A DNA stretch of 32,463 bases, from the NCBI RefSeq assembly GCF_003334385.1, contig NZ_QOWN01000051.1, one strand, 5' to 3'. Below the pieces are notes generated by a model. It was not told the origin of the DNA. It made no database searches and saw only the letters and a list, made by a program, of their open reading frames with translations. A program made the translations under genes and the position numbers. The DNA is from Escherichia coli. Lineage in GTDB: Bacteria; Pseudomonadota; Gammaproteobacteria; Enterobacterales; Enterobacteriaceae. Positions 21,652 to 28,952 of the stretch are shown here, piece after piece (within the stretch, counting starts at the first letter, position 1; every line of letters starts with the position of its first letter).

Positions 21652-22245
21652 ATGGAAAAATACCTGCACCTGTTAAGTCGGGGAGATAAAATTGGCCTGA
21701 CATTGATTCGTCTGAGTATTGCAATTGTTTTTATGTGGATTGGGTTATTAAAGTTTGTCCCTTACGAGGCAGACAGCATTACACCATTCGTCGCAAACAG
21801 TCCACTAATGTCGTTCTTTTATGAACACCCGGAAGACTATAAACAGTATCTGACTCACGAAGGCGAATACAAACCAGAAGCAAGGGCATGGCAAACGGCC
21901 AATAATACCTATGGTTTTTCCAACGGTCTTGGCGTCGTGGAGGTGATTATTGCTCTGCTGGTTTTGGCTAATCCTGTCAATCGCTGGTTAGGTTTATTGG
22001 GAGGACTGATGGCATTTACCACGCCGCTGGTAACACTCTCATTTTTAATCACCACCCCGGAGGCATGGGTACCCGCATTGGGTGACGCTCATCATGGTTT
22101 CCCTTATTTATCCGGTGCTGGTCGCCTGGTATTGAAAGATACTCTGATGCTGGCAGGTGCAGTCATGATAATGGCAGATTCGGCGCGGGAAATTCTTAAA
22201 CAACGCAGTAATGAATCCAGTTCAACGTTAAAAACTGAATATTGA
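21652..22245 (+). CDS. rclC: Inner-membrane protein of the rcl operon (197 aa)
   Basis: Multi-TM hydrophobic ORF immediately after rclB; start chosen at MEKYLHLL. Confidence 0.85.
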   Translation: MEKYLHLLSRGDKIGLTLIRLSIAIVFMWIGLLKFVPYEADSITPFVANSPLMSFFYEHPEDYKQYLTHEGEYKPEARAWQTANNTYGFSNGLGVVEVIIALLVLANPVNRWLGLLGGLMAFTTPLVTLSFLITTPEAWVPALGDAHHGFPYLSGAGRLVLKDTLMLAGAVMIMADSAREILKQRSNESSSTLKTEY

Positions 22246-22403
22246 TAATCCGAACACTGTCTGTTGTTCACTTTTTCAGGCGTCAGGCCCCCTTTCTGAT
22301 GATGAAGCCTGACGCCATATTACCGGAGATATGACAGAGTGAAGATCAATATCACTCCCTGTTAAAAGGTTTTTGTCGTCTTAGGTAAAATACATGATTA
22401 ATA

Positions 22404-22571
22404 TCAATCATGTATTTTTACAGCAAGACAACCACGAACAAATTCAGGATTAAAATGTTTTACCGACTCCCCAACATAACCCAAATCAAGCGAACTAATT
22501 TGTGCCATTTCTTTATCTGTCAGTGAGAAATCGATTTTTGATGGGCATCTGCAATACTCTGAAGCAGACTA
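22404..22571 (-). pseudogene. C-terminal remnant of an aldo-keto-reductase-like gene (ykgQ-like pseudogene)
   Basis: Hand translation of the minus strand gives ...KIDFSLTDKEMAQISSLDLGYVGESVKHFNPEFVRGCLAVKIHD*, resembling AKR C-termini; an in-frame stop sits immediately upstream and another frame carries a further fragment (...VCFVVPENREV...), so the gene is disrupted. Confidence 0.4.
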
Positions 22572-22834
22572 TACGGAAAATTCCACTGTCAGTCCCTCCA
22601 TTAGGCATGAACAATGAGTCTACGTTAAAACGTAACCTCAAAGTAGTATGTGGATTTTGATATCACTTATGCAAAAAATTCATTAATAATGTAGGACTGA
22701 AACCTCTCTATTTTCGGGGACAACGAAGCAGACGCTACCAGTGCTTTTGCCTTCGCCCTTGCTATTTTTGATACACTTAGGGCCCAGGGTATAACGAAAA
22801 TGTGCGATATGACAAAGAATTAACGGAGAATGAG

Positions 22835-23686
22835 ATGATCAGGCAGAATATTCTACAGCAGCTCCTGGAGTGGATTGAGTGCAATCTTGAGCACCCTATT
22901 TCAATCGAAGATATCGCACAGAAATCTGGCTACAGCAGACGCAACATCCAGCTTCTGTTCCGAAATTTCATGCATGTGCCTTTGGGAGAATACATTCGCA
23001 AACGAAGGCTTTGTCGTGCCGCCATTCTTGTCCGGCTCACCGCGAAATCTATGCTTGATATTGCACTCTCTTTGCATTTTGATTCACAGCAGTCATTCAG
23101 CCGCGAATTTAAAAAGTTATTCGGCTGCTCTCCCCGTGAATACCGCCACCGTGATTATTGGGATCTCGCAAATATCTTCCCTTCTTTTTTAATACGTCAA
23201 CAGCAAAAGACGGAGTGTAGATTAATCAACTTTCCTGAGACACCTATTTTTGGCAACTCATTTAAATATGACATTGAAGTGTCGAATAAATCACCGGATG
23301 AAGAAGTCAAACTACGACGTCATCATTTAGCCAGATGTATGAAGAATTTTAAGACGGATATCTATTTCGTTTCCACGTTTGAACCGTCAACAAAATCGGT
23401 CGATTTGCTCACGGTTGAAACTTTTGCTGGTACGGTATGTGAATATGCTGACATGCCAAAAGAGTGGACAACGACCCGAGGACTTTATGCCTCTTTCCGT
23501 TATGAAGGAAACTGGGAAAATTATCCTGACTGGGTGCGTAACATCTATCTGATAGAGTTACCTGCCAGGGGGTTAGCCAGAGTGAACGGCAGCGATATTG
23601 AGCGCTTTTATTACAATGAAGATTTCGTAGAAAAGGATGGCAATGATGTTGTTTGCGAAATTTTTATTCCCGTTCGTCCGGTTTAG
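22835..23686 (+). CDS. ykgA: AraC-family regulator with N-terminal HTH and C-terminal GyrI-like effector domain, apparently full length (283 aa)
   Basis: AraC-type HTH near the N-terminus (ISIEDIAQKSGYSRRNIQLLFRNF...FSREFKKLFGCSPREYR). Start chosen at MIRQNILQQLLEW. Confidence 0.8.
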   Translation: MIRQNILQQLLEWIECNLEHPISIEDIAQKSGYSRRNIQLLFRNFMHVPLGEYIRKRRLCRAAILVRLTAKSMLDIALSLHFDSQQSFSREFKKLFGCSPREYRHRDYWDLANIFPSFLIRQQQKTECRLINFPETPIFGNSFKYDIEVSNKSPDEEVKLRRHHLARCMKNFKTDIYFVSTFEPSTKSVDLLTVETFAGTVCEYADMPKEWTTTRGLYASFRYEGNWENYPDWVRNIYLIELPARGLARVNGSDIERFYYNEDFVEKDGNDVVCEIFIPVRPV

Positions 23687-23714
23687 TTGGTCACTATCTC
23701 TTATTGAGTTTTAT

Positions 23715-23750
23715 CCTTGCCTGATACTATTTAATCAGTATCAGGCAAGG
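23715..23750. terminator. Perfect 14-bp inverted repeat (CCTTGCCTGATACT / AGTATCAGGCAAGG, 8-nt loop) between convergent ykgA and eaeH
   Basis: Directly visible; no strong T-tract on either side, so terminator function is an inference. Confidence 0.45.
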
Positions 23751-23825
23751 TATTCAGTGAATAATGGCGTTGAATATTTCAACACCATTATTCTTTATTA
23801 GATCGTAACTTTCATACTATTCAAA

Positions 23826-26800
23826 TTATGGCATCTCCTCCTCGCCATTTTCAGTCTCTGCAGCAACGGCGTTAATTGTCACCTTCACAGGCGTCATTTC
23901 GTACCCGCCATACGTCAGTGCGTTGAATGTGAACGTATAGACACCTGGCTTGCTGGTACTAAATGTACGCGTGATTTTCCCACCTGAGAAATGGTCAGCC
24001 TTCGACGGCAGGAATTGATAATCCTTCTCCGTCACTCCTTCCGGAGCCTCAATGTCGACCCACATACTTCCTCCTACGGGATTGACTCCCGCCATCAGGG
24101 TAACCGTCATTGTTGCAGTAGTCTTCCCGTCCGCCACCAGAGAATCTACACGTTCTGGAGATGCGGCGAGCACCGCGTTTTTATCATCCGCGACGAATTT
24201 AGATTCAGCAGTTTTCGTCGATACCTGACCGTTGGCCTGTTCCACTTTCGCCGTGAGTGTATATGTCGCTGCGATAGTGGTAGAGCCGGTGAAAACAGCC
24301 TGTCCTTGCTCATTAGTTTTCGCCGTCCCTTTAGGATCCAGAACTAAATTTTCCGAGCTGGCAGTCAGCGTCACGTCGCTATCCTTCAACAGGTTGTTAT
24401 TGGCATCAGTCACCGTAACTTTATACGTCTGTTTGGTTTTGCCATCCGCCACTGCACGGTTGCCAATCACCTCAATACTGGAGATGGTCGCCGTAGTCTT
24501 ATCGGCCACAAACGTTACAGACTGCGCATTCGAAGGCTGGTCATTTCCTGCCGACGCCGTGATCTCATACGTTCCGGCAGTCACGGAGACCACTTTCAGT
24601 TCCGCTTTACCCTCCTTGTCGGCGTTCACCATGATATTACCGTCTGCAAGCGGTTTGACGCCCCGAGGCAGATTAAAGACGACCACAGCGCCAGGCAGAA
24701 GGTTGCCGTATTGATCCTTAACCGTTGCCGTCAGCGTAAAGGCATCATTGTCGTTTGCCACTTTTGGCGTGCTGCCATCAACCTCCAGGGTCGCCTGACC
24801 GGTACTGAAATCCGCCTTGAATTTCACCGTAACCGTCTTCTGAGCATTATTCACTGAGGCCGTGATGCTGTGTTCCCCCGCAACCGTTGACATAAGCTCA
24901 ATGTCCACTTTCCCTGCCGCATTGGTTGTTACTGTATTCCCCGTCTTGCTGGTCACACCCTGCGGTAAAGTCAGCGTAACTTCTTGCCCCTGCAACGGGT
25001 TACCATAGCTGTCCACGACGGTCAGGGTTATCTGGTTAGCAGACTGTCCATTAGCCAGTTGGTTATTAACCTTCACTGTCATATCACGAATCTCAGCCTT
25101 AGATGCGTCACCTGCAACGTTCAGCACCAGTGGCTGAGCAACGGCATTTTGGCCGTTCACTCGCGGCATCACAGACAACTGACCCGCGGCAGATCCCAGC
25201 GTTAAGGTCGCCACGTAGACCCCATTACCTTTCTCTGTCCAGTTTCCTGCTGAAGGACGCTCACTCCCCGTGCTGGCGGCACCGCTAAACACTGGTGCAT
25301 CTGGCTTCAGCCCGGTGACCGGGTTCCCGTACGCATCCTTCACGGTGAAGGTGAGTTCCGTCGTCATTTTGACGGTCGGAGCCTTATTGTCCGCAACAAG
25401 CGTAGAGTTCGCTGATGACATCTCTCCGGCGATGACCGTCAACTGCGCGGCTTCGGTGGCTGCTGGCTGGCCGTTGAAGAGCGGCATGACACGAAGCTCG
25501 CCCGTCTTTCCGCCTGTAGTTAACGTAGCAACATAGGAACAGTCACCTTTTTCGGTCCAACTGGAAACGGTCGCCCCTTCAGAGGCGGTCCCCGTCAAAC
25601 TTGCCGACAACGAAAGACCACTGATAGTGTTGCCATGTGCATCTTTTGCAATAAGCGTCACGGTTGTGCTTTCGCCGGCTTTTACGTGATCTTCTGCGAC
25701 AGAGACTTTCGACTGGTTTGAAGATAACGCATCAGCCACCACGGTTACTTTTGCCGCATTTGCTGCCGCATCCTGTCCATTTAGCTTCGGCATAACTTCT
25801 AATTCACCCGCCGTAGAGCCGAGAGTAATCTGCGCAGTCCACGTCCCATCACCATTATTTGTCCAGCCAGATGCCGTAGAACCTACAGCAGCGGCACCCG
25901 CTAATGACGGCGCTTCCGGCGTGAGGCTGGTCACAGGGTTGTCATAGGCATCTTTTGCCGTCCAGATTGCCGTAACTGTACCGCCAACCACCGGTTTATC
26001 AGGATTCAGGGTGATGGACGAATGTGCTGCATCAAGCGGACCGGCAACAAACTTCAGCGTTTGTTGTAATGTGCCCAGCTGATACTGCTCGCTGAAAGCA
26101 CGCACAACAACGTTTCCGGCACGGGTCGAAGAAACCGTGGCGCTGTAAACGCCTGGTTTTATTTCCGAAATGGCACCAACGGTTACACCATTAGTGTCTT
26201 GCGGAACAAATCGCAAGCGGCTGGCTTCTCCCGTCACCGGATTACCCTCGGAGTCCACCGCAGTCAACGTCAACGTATAGGCTTGCTGACCATCAGCAAC
26301 CACATCACCTGACGGCTCGTTAGCGCTCAGGGTGGAGTTTGCCACATCCATCATCGTGGCCCGCAGTTCTGCAGTGACGGTTTTGCTCATGCCATCAACG
26401 CTAACAGTAATCGTTGCCTCACCTGACTGCGTTCCGGTAGTAAAGACAGACTGATACACCCCTGCTTCAGTTTCGGTGAACTCACCCAGTGTTGGCTTTG
26501 CCTGTGATTTAGTGGCCTTCAGGGAACGAGTCACAATATTTCCAGCCGGTTTGAAGGCTAGTTCAGTCTTGATCTGATCTTTCATGCCCGTGACTGGCTG
26601 CCCCTCGGCGTCGCGCAGAGACAGCACCAGCGGTCTTTGCTCATTACCGTTAGCAAGCATTTGAATACGGCTCTGACCGTCAAGCGTTAACGCCGTGCGA
26701 TCGGCGCTCATACCTGCTCCGGTAATGACCACCTCTGTCTGCACGCGTTTTGAGGCATTGCCTTTGTTATCGTAGGCAACCGCAGAAATCGCATAATAAT

Positions 26801-28082
26801 TGTCTTTGCCTGGACGATAAGCCGGGAGCGTTACTTGCCACTGACTACCCTGACCGGTAATTTTGCCACCCTCAGCCAGTAATGACGGCGCTTCCCACTG
26901 CACATTTTTCAGTCCGTGAGTTGCTTTGCTGACCACAAGCCCCAGGGAAAGTGTCTGACCACCCTTACCTTCAATACGTTCAGGCAGAGCAATACGGATC
27001 ACTTCAGATTTGCGGTACTCAAGAACGATGTTGTTATTACGCTCAACCAGGTCATAGCGGCTGCCTGCCAGTACCCGACGCTCGCGAATGCTGTCTGTAT
27101 CGAGTTGTTTCGCCAGAGGTTCGCCAATCCGATAATTAACTTCCAGGCCAAAGCGAGTGTCATTCTCACCACTCTTGCCCTGCTTATGCCCGGCGCTCAG
27201 TGTCAGAAGAGGCACTGGCGTATAGGTCACCTCGGCAGAAATAGCATGCGGGTCTTTCTGGCGCTTATCTTTACCAAACAGCCCGACTTCATCGCCATAA
27301 TACTGTTCATACATCAGGCTTGCGCCAAGCTGCGGCCAGGCGGGTAAATAGCCCTCAGCACGAATATCCCAGCCATTCGCCGGGCGTTCCTGATAATCCT
27401 CAATATCCGGCGATTTTTTCCAGCCAGAAGCCCGAATATAACCATTGGCGCTCAGTTTCAGATAATCGCGCCAGTATTCCGCACCAACACCAATGCGGGT
27501 ATGACTACGGGATAAATCATGATCGATAAAAGTATTCACCCCCGCCATCCAGTCATTTCCTGAAAAATGACGCCAGCCAAAACCAATATTTGACTGAGTA
27601 CGATCGTCTGTACGATGTATTGCCCCCTGAGTGAACAACATATTTGTCGGCGTATCATAAATCGGATAAAGCATTTCCAGCGAAGAATCCTTCAGCGAGA
27701 AATCTTTATCGACATTCAGTTTGACGCGCGCAGTACCATATTTCCCGAGCCACTCCTGTATTTCCTGGTTAGCTTTAGCTGTGGCCATTCCGGTAATAAA
27801 GTTACGTGTCGCATCGCTATCTGGCTGACTGCTTAAAAATGTCCCGGCATTTGCGGCAAACGACGCGACATTTTTCTCCACGTTATTATCAGCAGTTACC
27901 GTAGTATTTCCCATGCTCAACCGTGGCTGAACCGCATGCTGCGCACGTGCCGCCATTACTGGGGTAAAGGTGACAGCGAGTGGAAAAAGAACCTGAACAG
28001 AGATATTTGCCCACGCCACGCAGCGGGCCAGAACTGAATAACGAAATCGTGATTGTTTATGACCTGTTTTATAATGTGACAT
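23826..28082 (-). CDS. eaeH: Intimin/invasin-family inverse autotransporter adhesin (FdeC/EaeH type), full length, 1418 aa
   Basis: N-terminal signal-like segment, then a beta-barrel-sized region, then a long tail of tandem Ig-like modules with recurring WTEKGNGVYVATLTLGSAAGQLSVMPRVNGQ-type motifs and T/V/S-rich beta-strand composition. Uninterrupted here. Confidence 0.9.
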   Translation of the reverse strand: MSHYKTGHKQSRFRYSVLARCVAWANISVQVLFPLAVTFTPVMAARAQHAVQPRLSMGNTTVTADNNVEKNVASFAANAGTFLSSQPDSDATRNFITGMATAKANQEIQEWLGKYGTARVKLNVDKDFSLKDSSLEMLYPIYDTPTNMLFTQGAIHRTDDRTQSNIGFGWRHFSGNDWMAGVNTFIDHDLSRSHTRIGVGAEYWRDYLKLSANGYIRASGWKKSPDIEDYQERPANGWDIRAEGYLPAWPQLGASLMYEQYYGDEVGLFGKDKRQKDPHAISAEVTYTPVPLLTLSAGHKQGKSGENDTRFGLEVNYRIGEPLAKQLDTDSIRERRVLAGSRYDLVERNNNIVLEYRKSEVIRIALPERIEGKGGQTLSLGLVVSKATHGLKNVQWEAPSLLAEGGKITGQGSQWQVTLPAYRPGKDNYYAISAVAYDNKGNASKRVQTEVVITGAGMSADRTALTLDGQSRIQMLANGNEQRPLVLSLRDAEGQPVTGMKDQIKTELAFKPAGNIVTRSLKATKSQAKPTLGEFTETEAGVYQSVFTTGTQSGEATITVSVDGMSKTVTAELRATMMDVANSTLSANEPSGDVVADGQQAYTLTLTAVDSEGNPVTGEASRLRFVPQDTNGVTVGAISEIKPGVYSATVSSTRAGNVVVRAFSEQYQLGTLQQTLKFVAGPLDAAHSSITLNPDKPVVGGTVTAIWTAKDAYDNPVTSLTPEAPSLAGAAAVGSTASGWTNNGDGTWTAQITLGSTAGELEVMPKLNGQDAAANAAKVTVVADALSSNQSKVSVAEDHVKAGESTTVTLIAKDAHGNTISGLSLSASLTGTASEGATVSSWTEKGDCSYVATLTTGGKTGELRVMPLFNGQPAATEAAQLTVIAGEMSSANSTLVADNKAPTVKMTTELTFTVKDAYGNPVTGLKPDAPVFSGAASTGSERPSAGNWTEKGNGVYVATLTLGSAAGQLSVMPRVNGQNAVAQPLVLNVAGDASKAEIRDMTVKVNNQLANGQSANQITLTVVDSYGNPLQGQEVTLTLPQGVTSKTGNTVTTNAAGKVDIELMSTVAGEHSITASVNNAQKTVTVKFKADFSTGQATLEVDGSTPKVANDNDAFTLTATVKDQYGNLLPGAVVVFNLPRGVKPLADGNIMVNADKEGKAELKVVSVTAGTYEITASAGNDQPSNAQSVTFVADKTTATISSIEVIGNRAVADGKTKQTYKVTVTDANNNLLKDSDVTLTASSENLVLDPKGTAKTNEQGQAVFTGSTTIAATYTLTAKVEQANGQVSTKTAESKFVADDKNAVLAASPERVDSLVADGKTTATMTVTLMAGVNPVGGSMWVDIEAPEGVTEKDYQFLPSKADHFSGGKITRTFSTSKPGVYTFTFNALTYGGYEMTPVKVTINAVAAETENGEEEMP

Positions 28083-28952
28083 TGAGATAATTTCCTGATG
28101 AACGAATTAACGAACATAGGCAGACACAAATAATGGCGTCTGCTTGTCAGAAAAACCGGGGATTTCCCGATTTCCTTTTCCGCAGAAAAGGAAATACCTT
28201 TATGTAAGAAAGTGCACCGCCACCTAATATATCCAGTGCCTATAGCCACTCATCAGGTGGTTGGGCGCGGGATTATATTTTTATTTATGGGGGAAAATTT
28301 AGCTTTTTGTGCAAGTCATTAAATAGATACCTAAGTTATATTTCTTACTCTGCGGACAGTGAATAATTCACTATTCAGAGTGAATAACAATGACCTGCCT
28401 TTAATTAAAACTATTGGAAATACGTCGAAATAGGTATATATGCCAGGATAAACCAATATATTTTTTATGGATATTCATTTTCCTTCATCGGACTGTAAAT
28501 TGCGGAGATATCGAACTTGCACTACCCATCGCAACACTCAAACAGATTTATGAATTTCGTTCATAACCCCTGACAAATTCTGCCGTCTAATCGAGCTTTT
28601 CCCTTTACGTTATGCTTCTCATGAACGATAACACAACTTGTTCATGAATTAACCATTCCGGATAAACTATGGGATCAAATTCAGGCATCGAAAGGAACTG
28701 GCTGGTTTCCGTTAATGGATTAAATATCTATTATTCTCCCGAGAGTAAAACTATCAAATCAATGAGTAACCGATACAGCCTCACAAATTCTTTCAGATAA
28801 TTAACCCGTCACTGCGGCACGTTCTCTCATAAGGCGTGCCTGCAGTGTAATCCAGTATGTATCCGGCATAGTTGACGGTTTAATAGAACTCAATTCCTCT
28901 CCCAGGTCACCAACAACGATATCTTGTATAACACCCCAGGAGATACGACATT

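Follow-up and report, generated by a model that had tools for sequence, protein, structure and literature searches.

The closest described relatives of the protein discussed here are the activators MarA, SoxS, RamA and Rob. MarA, SoxS and RamA are regulated via synthesis and proteolysis, whereas the activity of Rob is controlled by bile salts, decanoate and dipyridyl. The base-reading residues of Rob that we use for comparison are S34, W36, Q39 and R40 of helix α3 and Q86 and R90 of helix α6 (PMC9178005). The protein in question, YkgA, is encoded in a stretch of 32,463 nucleotides of Escherichia coli DNA (contig NZ_QOWN01000051.1, assembly GCF_003334385.1), called the window below. Its function and targets have been stated to be unidentified (PMC2064960). 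We propose, with a probability of roughly 0.55 to 0.6, that YkgA acts in the manner of Rob as a class II activator of fdeC (eaeH), the convergent gene for an inverse autotransporter adhesin. The linkage of ykgA to fdeC across genera, a candidate regulator box in the fdeC promoter and the recurrence of this box beside YkgA-family genes are new here. The coding features are the following.

22835-23686, plus strand: ykgA coding sequence, intact, 283 amino acids plus stop; an uninterrupted open reading frame read from the sequence.
22835-23170, plus strand: AraC/XylS double helix-turn-helix (HTH) DNA-binding domain, amino acids 1-112; by Pfam, and 44% identical to the Rob N-terminal domain.
23213-23677, plus strand: GyrI-like small-molecule-binding domain, amino acids ~127-281; by Pfam, AlphaFold2 and Foldseek, with ligand binding predicted.
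23826-28082, minus strand: fdeC (eaeH), intact, encoding an inverse autotransporter adhesin of 1418 amino acids, convergent with ykgA; by open reading frame and annotation.

An earlier note on this DNA, made from the letters alone, took ykgA to be full length and its product to be an AraC-type HTH domain fused to a GyrI-like domain. The 283-codon frame bears out the first point, and domain searches, structure prediction and fold comparison agree on the second. Pfam matches the first 110 residues with HTH_18 (E 2.4e-19) and HTH_AraC (E 2.8e-11) and aligns model positions 2-155 of 155 of the GyrI-like family (PF06445) at E 5.3e-9, match strengths that are far beyond chance for an open reading frame. 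The AlphaFold2 model, built with 18 homologues, has a mean predicted local distance difference test score (pLDDT) of 89.5 and a predicted template modelling score (pTM) of 0.83. It contains seven helices in residues 2-104, followed in the C-terminal part by two strand-strand-helix-strand-strand repeats (pLDDT mostly >84), which is the duplicated beta-alpha-beta-beta GyrI-like fold. Foldseek places the whole model closest to Rob (1d5y and 7vwy, template modelling score, TM, 0.76-0.78). For the GyrI-like part, it retrieves the Rob C-terminal domain (7vwz_I, TMt 0.72), the GyrI protein SbmC (1jyh, TMt 0.61), BmrR (1bow), CTR107 and SAV2435, so that the C-terminal assignment holds at the level of predicted structure as well. 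Rob is also the closest solved relative in a sequence search of the PDB (1D5Y/7VWY, E 2e-38, full length). The suggested likeness to multidrug-sensing activators is therefore apt, since Rob responds to multiple drugs and bile salts. The NCBIfam model RobA_TF (NF012228) aligns with YkgA over model positions 2-286 of 286, but with 194 bits against an equivalog cut-off of 380, and YkgA is therefore a Rob paralogue and not the Rob orthologue. It joins a MarA-like double HTH to a GyrI-like ligand-binding domain.

Rob and YkgA share their two-domain architecture and align from end to end (289 and 283 residues), with 32% identity overall, 44% in the N-terminal and 24% in the C-terminal domain. The DNA-reading residues Q86 and R90 of helix α6 are common to both, the Rob backbone contacts R55, D83, S84, K93 and K94 are kept in YkgA, and W13 and G32, which in Rob contact the RNA polymerase alpha subunit at its C-terminal domain, are invariant in the YkgA family. 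In helix α3, S34 and Q39 are kept, but W36, H37 and R40 of Rob are replaced by R36, N37 and L40 in YkgA. The fold of the MarA/SoxS/Rob group and one reading head (α6) are thus present in YkgA, and the other reading head (α3) is altered. The sequence YSRR is a signature of the YkgA clade, with YCRR in one of the two genes of an E. coli plasmid locus (L146) as an exception, whereas MarA, SoxS, Rob and RamA read YSKW. In the sensor domain, the pocket glutamate E262 of Rob corresponds to E256 of YkgA, which is at least 90% conserved among 18 homologues, whereas W164 and K190 of Rob are not conserved. Since the glutamate is kept but other pocket residues differ, the ligand of YkgA probably differs from that of Rob. 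The genomic contexts differ as well: rob is flanked by creA and gpmB, and no box of the kind described below is nearby.

MarA, SoxS and RamA align with the YkgA N-terminal domain without gaps (E 2e-27 for SoxS, 3e-21 for RamA and 2e-18 for MarA). They lack a C-terminal domain, whereas in YkgA there is a sensor domain like that of Rob, and its helix α3 is distinct. The DNA site that we propose for YkgA fits the marbox consensus of MarA, SoxS and RamA, and has the micF-like class II geometry known for Rob. STM3175 (YgiV), the albicidin-binding protein of Salmonella (PDB 7R3W), has the same combination of AraC HTH and GyrI-like domains and is matched in sequence (E 1.3e-14) and in fold. However, it is more distant from YkgA (20-21% identity), and its whole-chain TM of only 0.35-0.38 indicates a different domain arrangement. 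BmrR, EcmrR and BrlR share the drug-binding GyrI-like fold with the YkgA C-terminal domain, but they have a MerR-type DNA-binding domain and activate by promoter distortion, so that the relation is at the domain level only.

Close relatives of YkgA are nearly confined to Escherichia. A contig scan with the orthologue alignment, which used two narrow peptide patterns and is not a census, returned five loci (including E. whittamii, Escherichia sp. E1V33 and E. coli E69). Rare orthologues of 63-67% identity are found in Salmonella enterica (L003), in Kosakonia sacchari (L008) and on the contigs L019 and L009. In L003, L008 and the metagenome contig L019, the ykgA orthologue stands tail to tail with a gene for an FdeC-like inverse autotransporter (70% identity to FdeC in L003, 59-80% in L008 and 45% in L019), while the opposite flanks vary: they hold HipA-like, DUF4440 and PrpR-like genes in these loci, and an aldo/keto reductase (AKR) gene and the rcl genes in E. 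coli. A YkgA homologue of 44% identity on a Siccibacter IncFII plasmid adjoins a different inverse autotransporter. The adhesin gene travels with ykgA; the AKR gene does not.

The promoter region of fdeC contains two elements that concern us here.

28296-28315, minus strand: 20-bp marbox-like box CTTGCACAAAAAGCTAAATT, forward relative to fdeC, candidate YkgA site; 13 of the 14 specified marbox positions.
28272-28277, minus strand: perfect -10 hexamer TATAAT, 18 nucleotides downstream of the box; ATAAAAATATAATCCCGC is invariant across genera.

The box (short form TTGCACAAAAAGCTAAAT) was scored against the marbox consensus AYnGCACnnWnnRYYAAAYn with its 14 specified positions. At the -35 position, the fdeC promoter matches TTGACA at 0 of 6 bases. 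When the upstream regions of fdeC from E. coli, E. whittamii, Salmonella and Kosakonia are aligned, non-coding blocks turn out to be better conserved than the proteins. The conserved block TTGCACAAAA(A/T)GCTAAATT is followed by a variable stretch and then by the invariant ATAAAAATATAATCCCGC. Except for one central A/T substitution in Salmonella, the box core is the same in all four, and this conservation across genera persists although the synonymous sites of ykgA are saturated. Counted from the -10 element, the box has G at -47, A at -45, G at -38 and A/T pairs at -35/-34, which are the bases contacted by Rob in the micF class II complex (PMC9178005). Taken by itself, one marbox match in 32 kb does not exceed chance (0.8 expected), and the argument for the box therefore rests on its conservation across genera and on its recurrence. 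The spacing of class II promoters is said to have been given as 18-19 bp by Martin and co-workers in 1999.

The earlier note had named the AKR remnant and the rcl genes as candidate targets, and had found no obvious target operon. The remnant is the following feature.

22404-22532, minus strand: AKR remnant, the C-terminal 43 codons (129 nucleotides), divergent from ykgA; by PGAP on an identical sequence.

The divergent AKR gene could be the ancestral or main target of YkgA, the two forming an aldehyde- or xenobiotic-sensing pair like YqhC with yqhD-dkgA, so that in the window, where this target is dead, ykgA would be an orphan. In favour of this possibility, the AKR gene is full length and divergent beside ykgA in 2932 of 5426 complete E. 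coli genomes (including CFT073 and O157:H7), about 250 bp upstream, and in E. whittamii, about 375 bp upstream. However, the spacer between AKR and ykgA holds no box of at least 11/14 positions in CFT073 or E. whittamii, and the AKR gene is not beside the orthologues in Salmonella, Kosakonia, L019 and L009. The box promoter, in contrast, is present wherever the contig extends to it (Salmonella, Kosakonia and L009), the adhesin gene of L019 running off the contig end ahead of its promoter. The absence of a spacer box, together with the absence of AKR beside the orthologues of other genera, weakens the case for an AKR target to the point where we consider it quite unlikely. No YkgA-family box lies near the AKR remnant or the rcl genes, nor does one occur elsewhere in the window even at up to 4 mismatches, and rcl gene control is presumably already accounted for by RclR. 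Thus, fdeC is a better target candidate than either.

All loci retrieved for relatives of YkgA were searched for the 17-mer TGCACAAAAAGCTAAAT. The matches are given below, with the identity of the regulator to YkgA.

L009, regulator 65%: 0 mismatches, with ATAAAAATATAAT 18 nucleotides downstream; before a gene for an EAL-domain protein that is convergent with the regulator; no adhesin gene.
L021, regulator 47%: 1 mismatch, plus two opposite-strand boxes at 3 mismatches; upstream of a fimbrial chaperone-usher pair.
L020, regulator 53%: 2 mismatches; between the regulator and a second AraC/GyrI-like gene.
L005 (Enterobacter), regulator 43%: 2 mismatches; ~95 nucleotides upstream of the regulator itself.
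L145 (E. coli plasmid), regulator 41%: 2 mismatches; ~95 nucleotides upstream of the regulator itself.
L144 (Edwardsiella), regulator 39%: tandem boxes with 2 and 3 mismatches; ~90 and 120 nucleotides upstream of the regulator itself.
L142 (Siccibacter plasmid), regulator 44%: 1 mismatch; ~390 nucleotides downstream of the regulator, on the opposite strand.
L146 (E. coli plasmid), regulator 36%: 2 mismatches; upstream of the regulator.
L146 (E. coli plasmid), regulator 36%: 3 mismatches; upstream of a convergent EAL gene, which is followed by a fimbrial operon.
L004 (Klebsiella sp.), regulator 48%: 3 and 4 mismatches; upstream of a convergent decarboxylase-antiporter operon.
L010 (Salmonella), regulator 47%: 3 mismatches; upstream of a gene ~3.4 kb before a fimbrial usher gene.

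The box thus stands beside YkgA-family genes in at least nine contexts, seven of them with homologues of 35-53% identity, and every recurring box has a -10-like hexamer 17-19 nucleotides downstream. Six contexts unrelated to the fdeC promoter (64.9 kb) contain 2, 4 and 8 matches at up to 1, 2 and 3 mismatches, against 0.002, 0.016 and 0.26 expected from shuffling, and none of 500 local-composition shuffles reaches the observed values. As a prospective test, three loci were fetched after the hypothesis had been formed; two of them carry the box at up to 2 mismatches, and the third (Buttiauxella, L143) has none. As controls, the other 25.8 kb of the window contain 0 boxes at up to 3 mismatches, and the 14.9 kb around rob 0 boxes at up to 4. 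From fifteen sites comes the consensus nTTGCACAAWAAGCTAARW; it fixes several positions at which the marbox consensus allows any base. In L009, the same box with ATAAAAATATAAT precedes an EAL gene in the absence of an adhesin, and the regulator therefore appears tied to the promoter and not to the adhesin gene. An autoregulatory box of at least 12/14 positions was not found upstream of ykgA in Escherichia, Salmonella or L009, while AATGTATATTATGTTAAAT upstream of ykgA is common to Kosakonia and L019 (11/14 marbox positions).

A metagenome scan for DNTGCACAAAAAGCTAAAT returned at least 120 contigs with a median G+C of 36%, and none of those listed had a YkgA-like or FdeC-like protein. As an exact 17-mer is expected about that often by chance, the scan is neutral to the hypothesis. 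We had also considered that the W36R and R40L exchanges in helix α3 imply an altered A-site sequence, but dropped this idea, because the recurring box keeps the canonical GCAC.

The fdeC box could also be an ordinary marbox that serves MarA, SoxS or Rob, with YkgA having other targets or merely overlapping with its paralogues. It matches 13 of 14 marbox positions in class II geometry, its GCTAAAT half is presumably the same as in the marRAB marbox, and YkgA lacks equivalents of W36 and R40, the A-site readers of Rob. Salmonella and Kosakonia, where the box is conserved, can be assumed to carry the canonical regulators. An ordinary marbox leaves unexplained, however, why the box accompanies YkgA-family genes in unrelated loci, plasmids included, at ~250 times the chance frequency, why T3, A8, A9, A11 and A12 are conserved at positions where the marbox has N, and why, in L009, ykgA is linked to the box promoter despite a different downstream gene. 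Moreover, in the literature searched, eaeH/fdeC is reported neither with a marbox nor as regulated by MarA or SoxS. We therefore regard control by these regulators instead of YkgA as unlikely. Cross-talk with MarA, SoxS and Rob is likely, whichever reading holds.

If YkgA activates fdeC, it would bind a single asymmetric 20-bp box (consensus TTGCACAAWAAGCTAAR) as a monomer, at a site that overlaps the missing -35 element. Helix α6 would face the GCTAAA half, on the polymerase side, and helix α3, with R36, N37 and L40, the TTGCAC half. Through contacts with sigma-70 region 4 and the alpha C-terminal domain, the regulator may then stand in for the missing -35 contact and so recruit RNA polymerase. 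The box in the fdeC promoter (28315-28296) would make YkgA a dedicated activator of the FdeC adhesin, and the GyrI-like domain, by analogy with Rob, may gate its activity via a small molecule.

Several points weigh against the activation of fdeC by YkgA. The literature searched contains no paper that links ykgA with fdeC, and the convergent orientation of the two genes is an unusual arrangement for a regulator and its target. The fdeC box fits the general marbox consensus and may therefore be bound by MarA, SoxS or Rob. YkgA departs from these proteins at three α3 contacts (R36, N37 and L40), yet the box keeps the canonical GCAC, and the transcription start of fdeC is a predicted one. No box was found in the locus of a YkgA homologue from Buttiauxella (L143). 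Finally, several of the box loci are homologous to each other (L005, L145 and L144; the fdeC promoters), and hence there are fewer independent contexts than sites.

The laboratory strain K-12 has lost part of each gene of the proposed pair. The earlier note took the K-12 copy of ykgA to be truncated or a pseudogene beside an insertion sequence, and this is indeed the case. In an MG1655 derivative, the ykgA coding sequence has the same ATG and is annotated as 'incomplete; missing C-terminus' after 654 nucleotides. Directly behind the ykgA fragment lies IS3, and behind IS3 a 5' piece of the inverse autotransporter gene. Alignment of the window with K-12 shows a single difference in 655 nucleotides of ykgA (N5K), and none in the 235 nucleotides upstream. 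Homology ends at 23489 and restarts at 27207, and hence 3717 bp have been replaced by IS3.

23490-27206, no strand assigned: segment replaced by IS3 in K-12, from junction mapping against the K-12 derivative; it comprises 65 codons at the end of ykgA, the hairpin between the two genes and approximately the C-terminal 1125 codons of fdeC.

The K-12 gene thus differs in length from that of the window, keeping residues 1-218 of 283 before it reads ten codons into IS3. Counted from an upstream GTG start, the K-12 protein would have 239 amino acids, which we take to be the length of its UniProt entry. With residues 219-283, K-12 has lost the greater part of the second half of the GyrI-like fold, together with the conserved E256. 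In K-12 YkgA, the sensor domain is therefore predicted to be unable to fold, with the DNA-binding domain intact. The junction between ykgA and IS3 is present in 313 of the 5426 complete genomes, including laboratory strains and the F' of XL1-Blue, whereas full-length ykgA DNA, counted when a genome holds at least 80% of the query, is present in 4612 (85%), leaving ~15% without a full-length match. An intact gene is thus the norm and K-12 the exception. CFT073 and O157:H7 have intact alleles of 285 amino acids. The K-12 state is a lineage-specific loss via an IS3-associated 3.7-kb deletion, which also removed most of fdeC. The truncation was already known, as it is flagged in RefSeq, and Nesta et al. 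(2012) described fdeC as a truncated pseudogene in K-12 and drew the truncated genes of the cluster in light colours (PMC3324786). An intact ykgA is therefore ordinary.

Selection has acted on the whole protein. In pairwise Nei-Gojobori comparisons among ten orthologues, the ratio of nonsynonymous to synonymous substitution rates (dN/dS) is 0.08-0.25 for the entire gene, 0.03-0.09 for the N-terminal domain and 0.14-0.30 for the GyrI-like C-terminal domain, which indicates purifying selection on both. These values bear on the suspicion that ykgA no longer has a function in E. coli today and is a relic in decay, its intactness in the window being incidental. Such a view would agree with the lack of an obvious laboratory phenotype of the K-12 disruption, with the lack of a reported YkgA function (PMC2064960), and with the ~15% of complete genomes that have no full-length match. 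It is, however, at odds with the selection on both domains, with the 85% of genomes that keep full-length ykgA DNA, with the retention of the orthologue and the same neighbour in other genera, and with the reported induction of the ykgA transcript on ethanolamine in an adherent-invasive E. coli strain (PMC9220930). We consider a functionless relic highly improbable.

Between its predicted transcription start (near 28265, for a transcript leader of ~180 nucleotides) and its coding sequence, fdeC has a further conserved element.

28083-28213, minus strand: fdeC 5' leader, conserved, with three predicted hairpins; from alignment and RNAalifold.

This stretch (~130 nucleotides before the start codon) is 86-91% identical among E. 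coli, Salmonella and Kosakonia, whereas the proteins are only 59-80% identical. RNAalifold predicts 45 pairs, 5 of them with compensatory changes. One hairpin is terminator-like (CCGGG-AAATC-CCCGG, then a U run), and in the predicted fold the U-rich UUUUUCUGA pairs with the Shine-Dalgarno region UCAGGAAA. An Rfam search of the leader gave no match. The leader may be a fourU-like thermosensor or an attenuator, and would in this role fit the reported temperature control of fdeC.

Regarding the start of ykgA, an alternative GTG at 22802 would add 11 codons. The ATG at 22835 is the better choice, because a GGAG lies 8 nucleotides 5' of it, because all aligned YkgA orthologues start with M-I/V-R at the same point, and because PGAP annotates identical coordinates in E. 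coli SCU-104 (WP_016232027.1), which matches window positions 22600-23830 at 100%. A scan for sigma-70 promoters around ykgA was uninformative (5 sites against 4.2 expected). The spacer between the two convergent genes contains one more feature.

23715-23750, no strand assigned: perfect 14-bp inverted repeat in the convergent ykgA/fdeC spacer; read from the sequence.

This repeat probably forms a bidirectional terminator hairpin for ykgA and fdeC. A simple terminator scan around ykgA made no calls, the hairpin being missed because it has no T run. Rfam, run over window positions 22200-29200, gave only sub-threshold miRNA-type matches on this hairpin, which are spurious and due to the inverted repeat.

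The hairpin also lies in a patch of local divergence among E. coli lineages (23355-23948), which runs from the last third of ykgA across the intergenic hairpin into the 3' end of fdeC, and is 72-82% identical to CFT073 against 96-99% in the flanks. The synonymous divergence of ykgA between the window and CFT073 or O157:H7 is 0 over the first 111 codons and 0.28-0.29 over the remainder, a step that points to a recombination breakpoint inside the gene.

On the other side of ykgA, the AKR remnant (22404-22590) has undergone two or more internal deletions when compared with the intact E. whittamii gene (L013, 6737-7624), and the intergenic DNA on the ykgA side is preserved. ACTATACGGAAAATTCCACT is a 20-mer of the ykgA-ykgQ spacer that is reported to be bound by AtoC in vivo (PMC3118216). 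In the window (22568-22587), it coincides exactly with one of the AKR deletion junctions. Upstream of ykgA, E. whittamii has ~147 extra nucleotides (L013, ~7780-7925), which include sequence resembling repetitive extragenic palindromes (REP; GCCTGATGCGCTA...TAGGCC), are absent from E. coli and correspond to an insertion point near window position 22737. In Escherichia sp. E1V33 (L012), E. whittamii (L013) and E. coli E69 (L014), the 8 kb upstream of ykgA contain no rclA, rclB or rclC. The AKR gene of E. whittamii comes immediately after ykgE. It therefore seems that the rcl cluster either was inserted specifically in E. coli proper or was lost in those lineages.

YkgA/Rob-like proteins are also encoded on plasmids, in 176 records, of which 158 are from Escherichia and 163 are below 60% identity, with up to three copies on some records. 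Some of the plasmid genes adjoin an EAL gene and a fimbrial operon, or a TolC/HlyD/ABC export cluster (e.g. L145, CP042619.1, and L146, CP098942.1). Short contigs of two metagenome-assembled genomes that are labelled with Gram-positive taxa, 'Collinsella sp.' (L015) and 'Bacillota bacterium' (L016), carry ykgA/fdeC fragments that are 100% and 89% identical to E. coli. They are most likely mis-binned Escherichia sequence.

That ykgA is intact in the window matters little in itself. What is gained is a specific and testable hypothesis on the function of YkgA, and a natural template for repairing or expressing the K-12-type protein, for which the window allele is suited because it differs from K-12 by a single base over the shared 655 nucleotides. 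FdeC is a broadly conserved adhesin and vaccine antigen, which is reported to be silenced by H-NS, to respond to temperature and to be switched on at host contact. The control of fdeC by H-NS and temperature was reportedly described by Easton and co-workers in 2014. A 2024 study found only indirect control of fdeC, via unknown regulators (PMC11657066). If YkgA acts as proposed, FdeC would have an activator dedicated to it, which recognises a defined 20-bp site and contains a ligand-binding domain, and a function would be assigned to the fourth, orphan member of the MarA/SoxS/Rob group.

A wider interpretation, which we offer tentatively and hold to be somewhat doubtful, is that the YSRR regulators form a distinct Rob-like branch of ligand-gated class II activators, which would control surface and adhesion loci (FdeC, chaperone-usher fimbriae, EAL phosphodiesterases) via their own box, TTGCACAAWAAGCTAAR. 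In E. coli, fdeC would be the sole target in the region, a host-derived small molecule would be the trigger, and a single IS3-mediated deletion would have cost K-12 both the regulator and its target. If true, the existence of such a branch would account for the silence of FdeC in culture and for its appearance once host cells are contacted.

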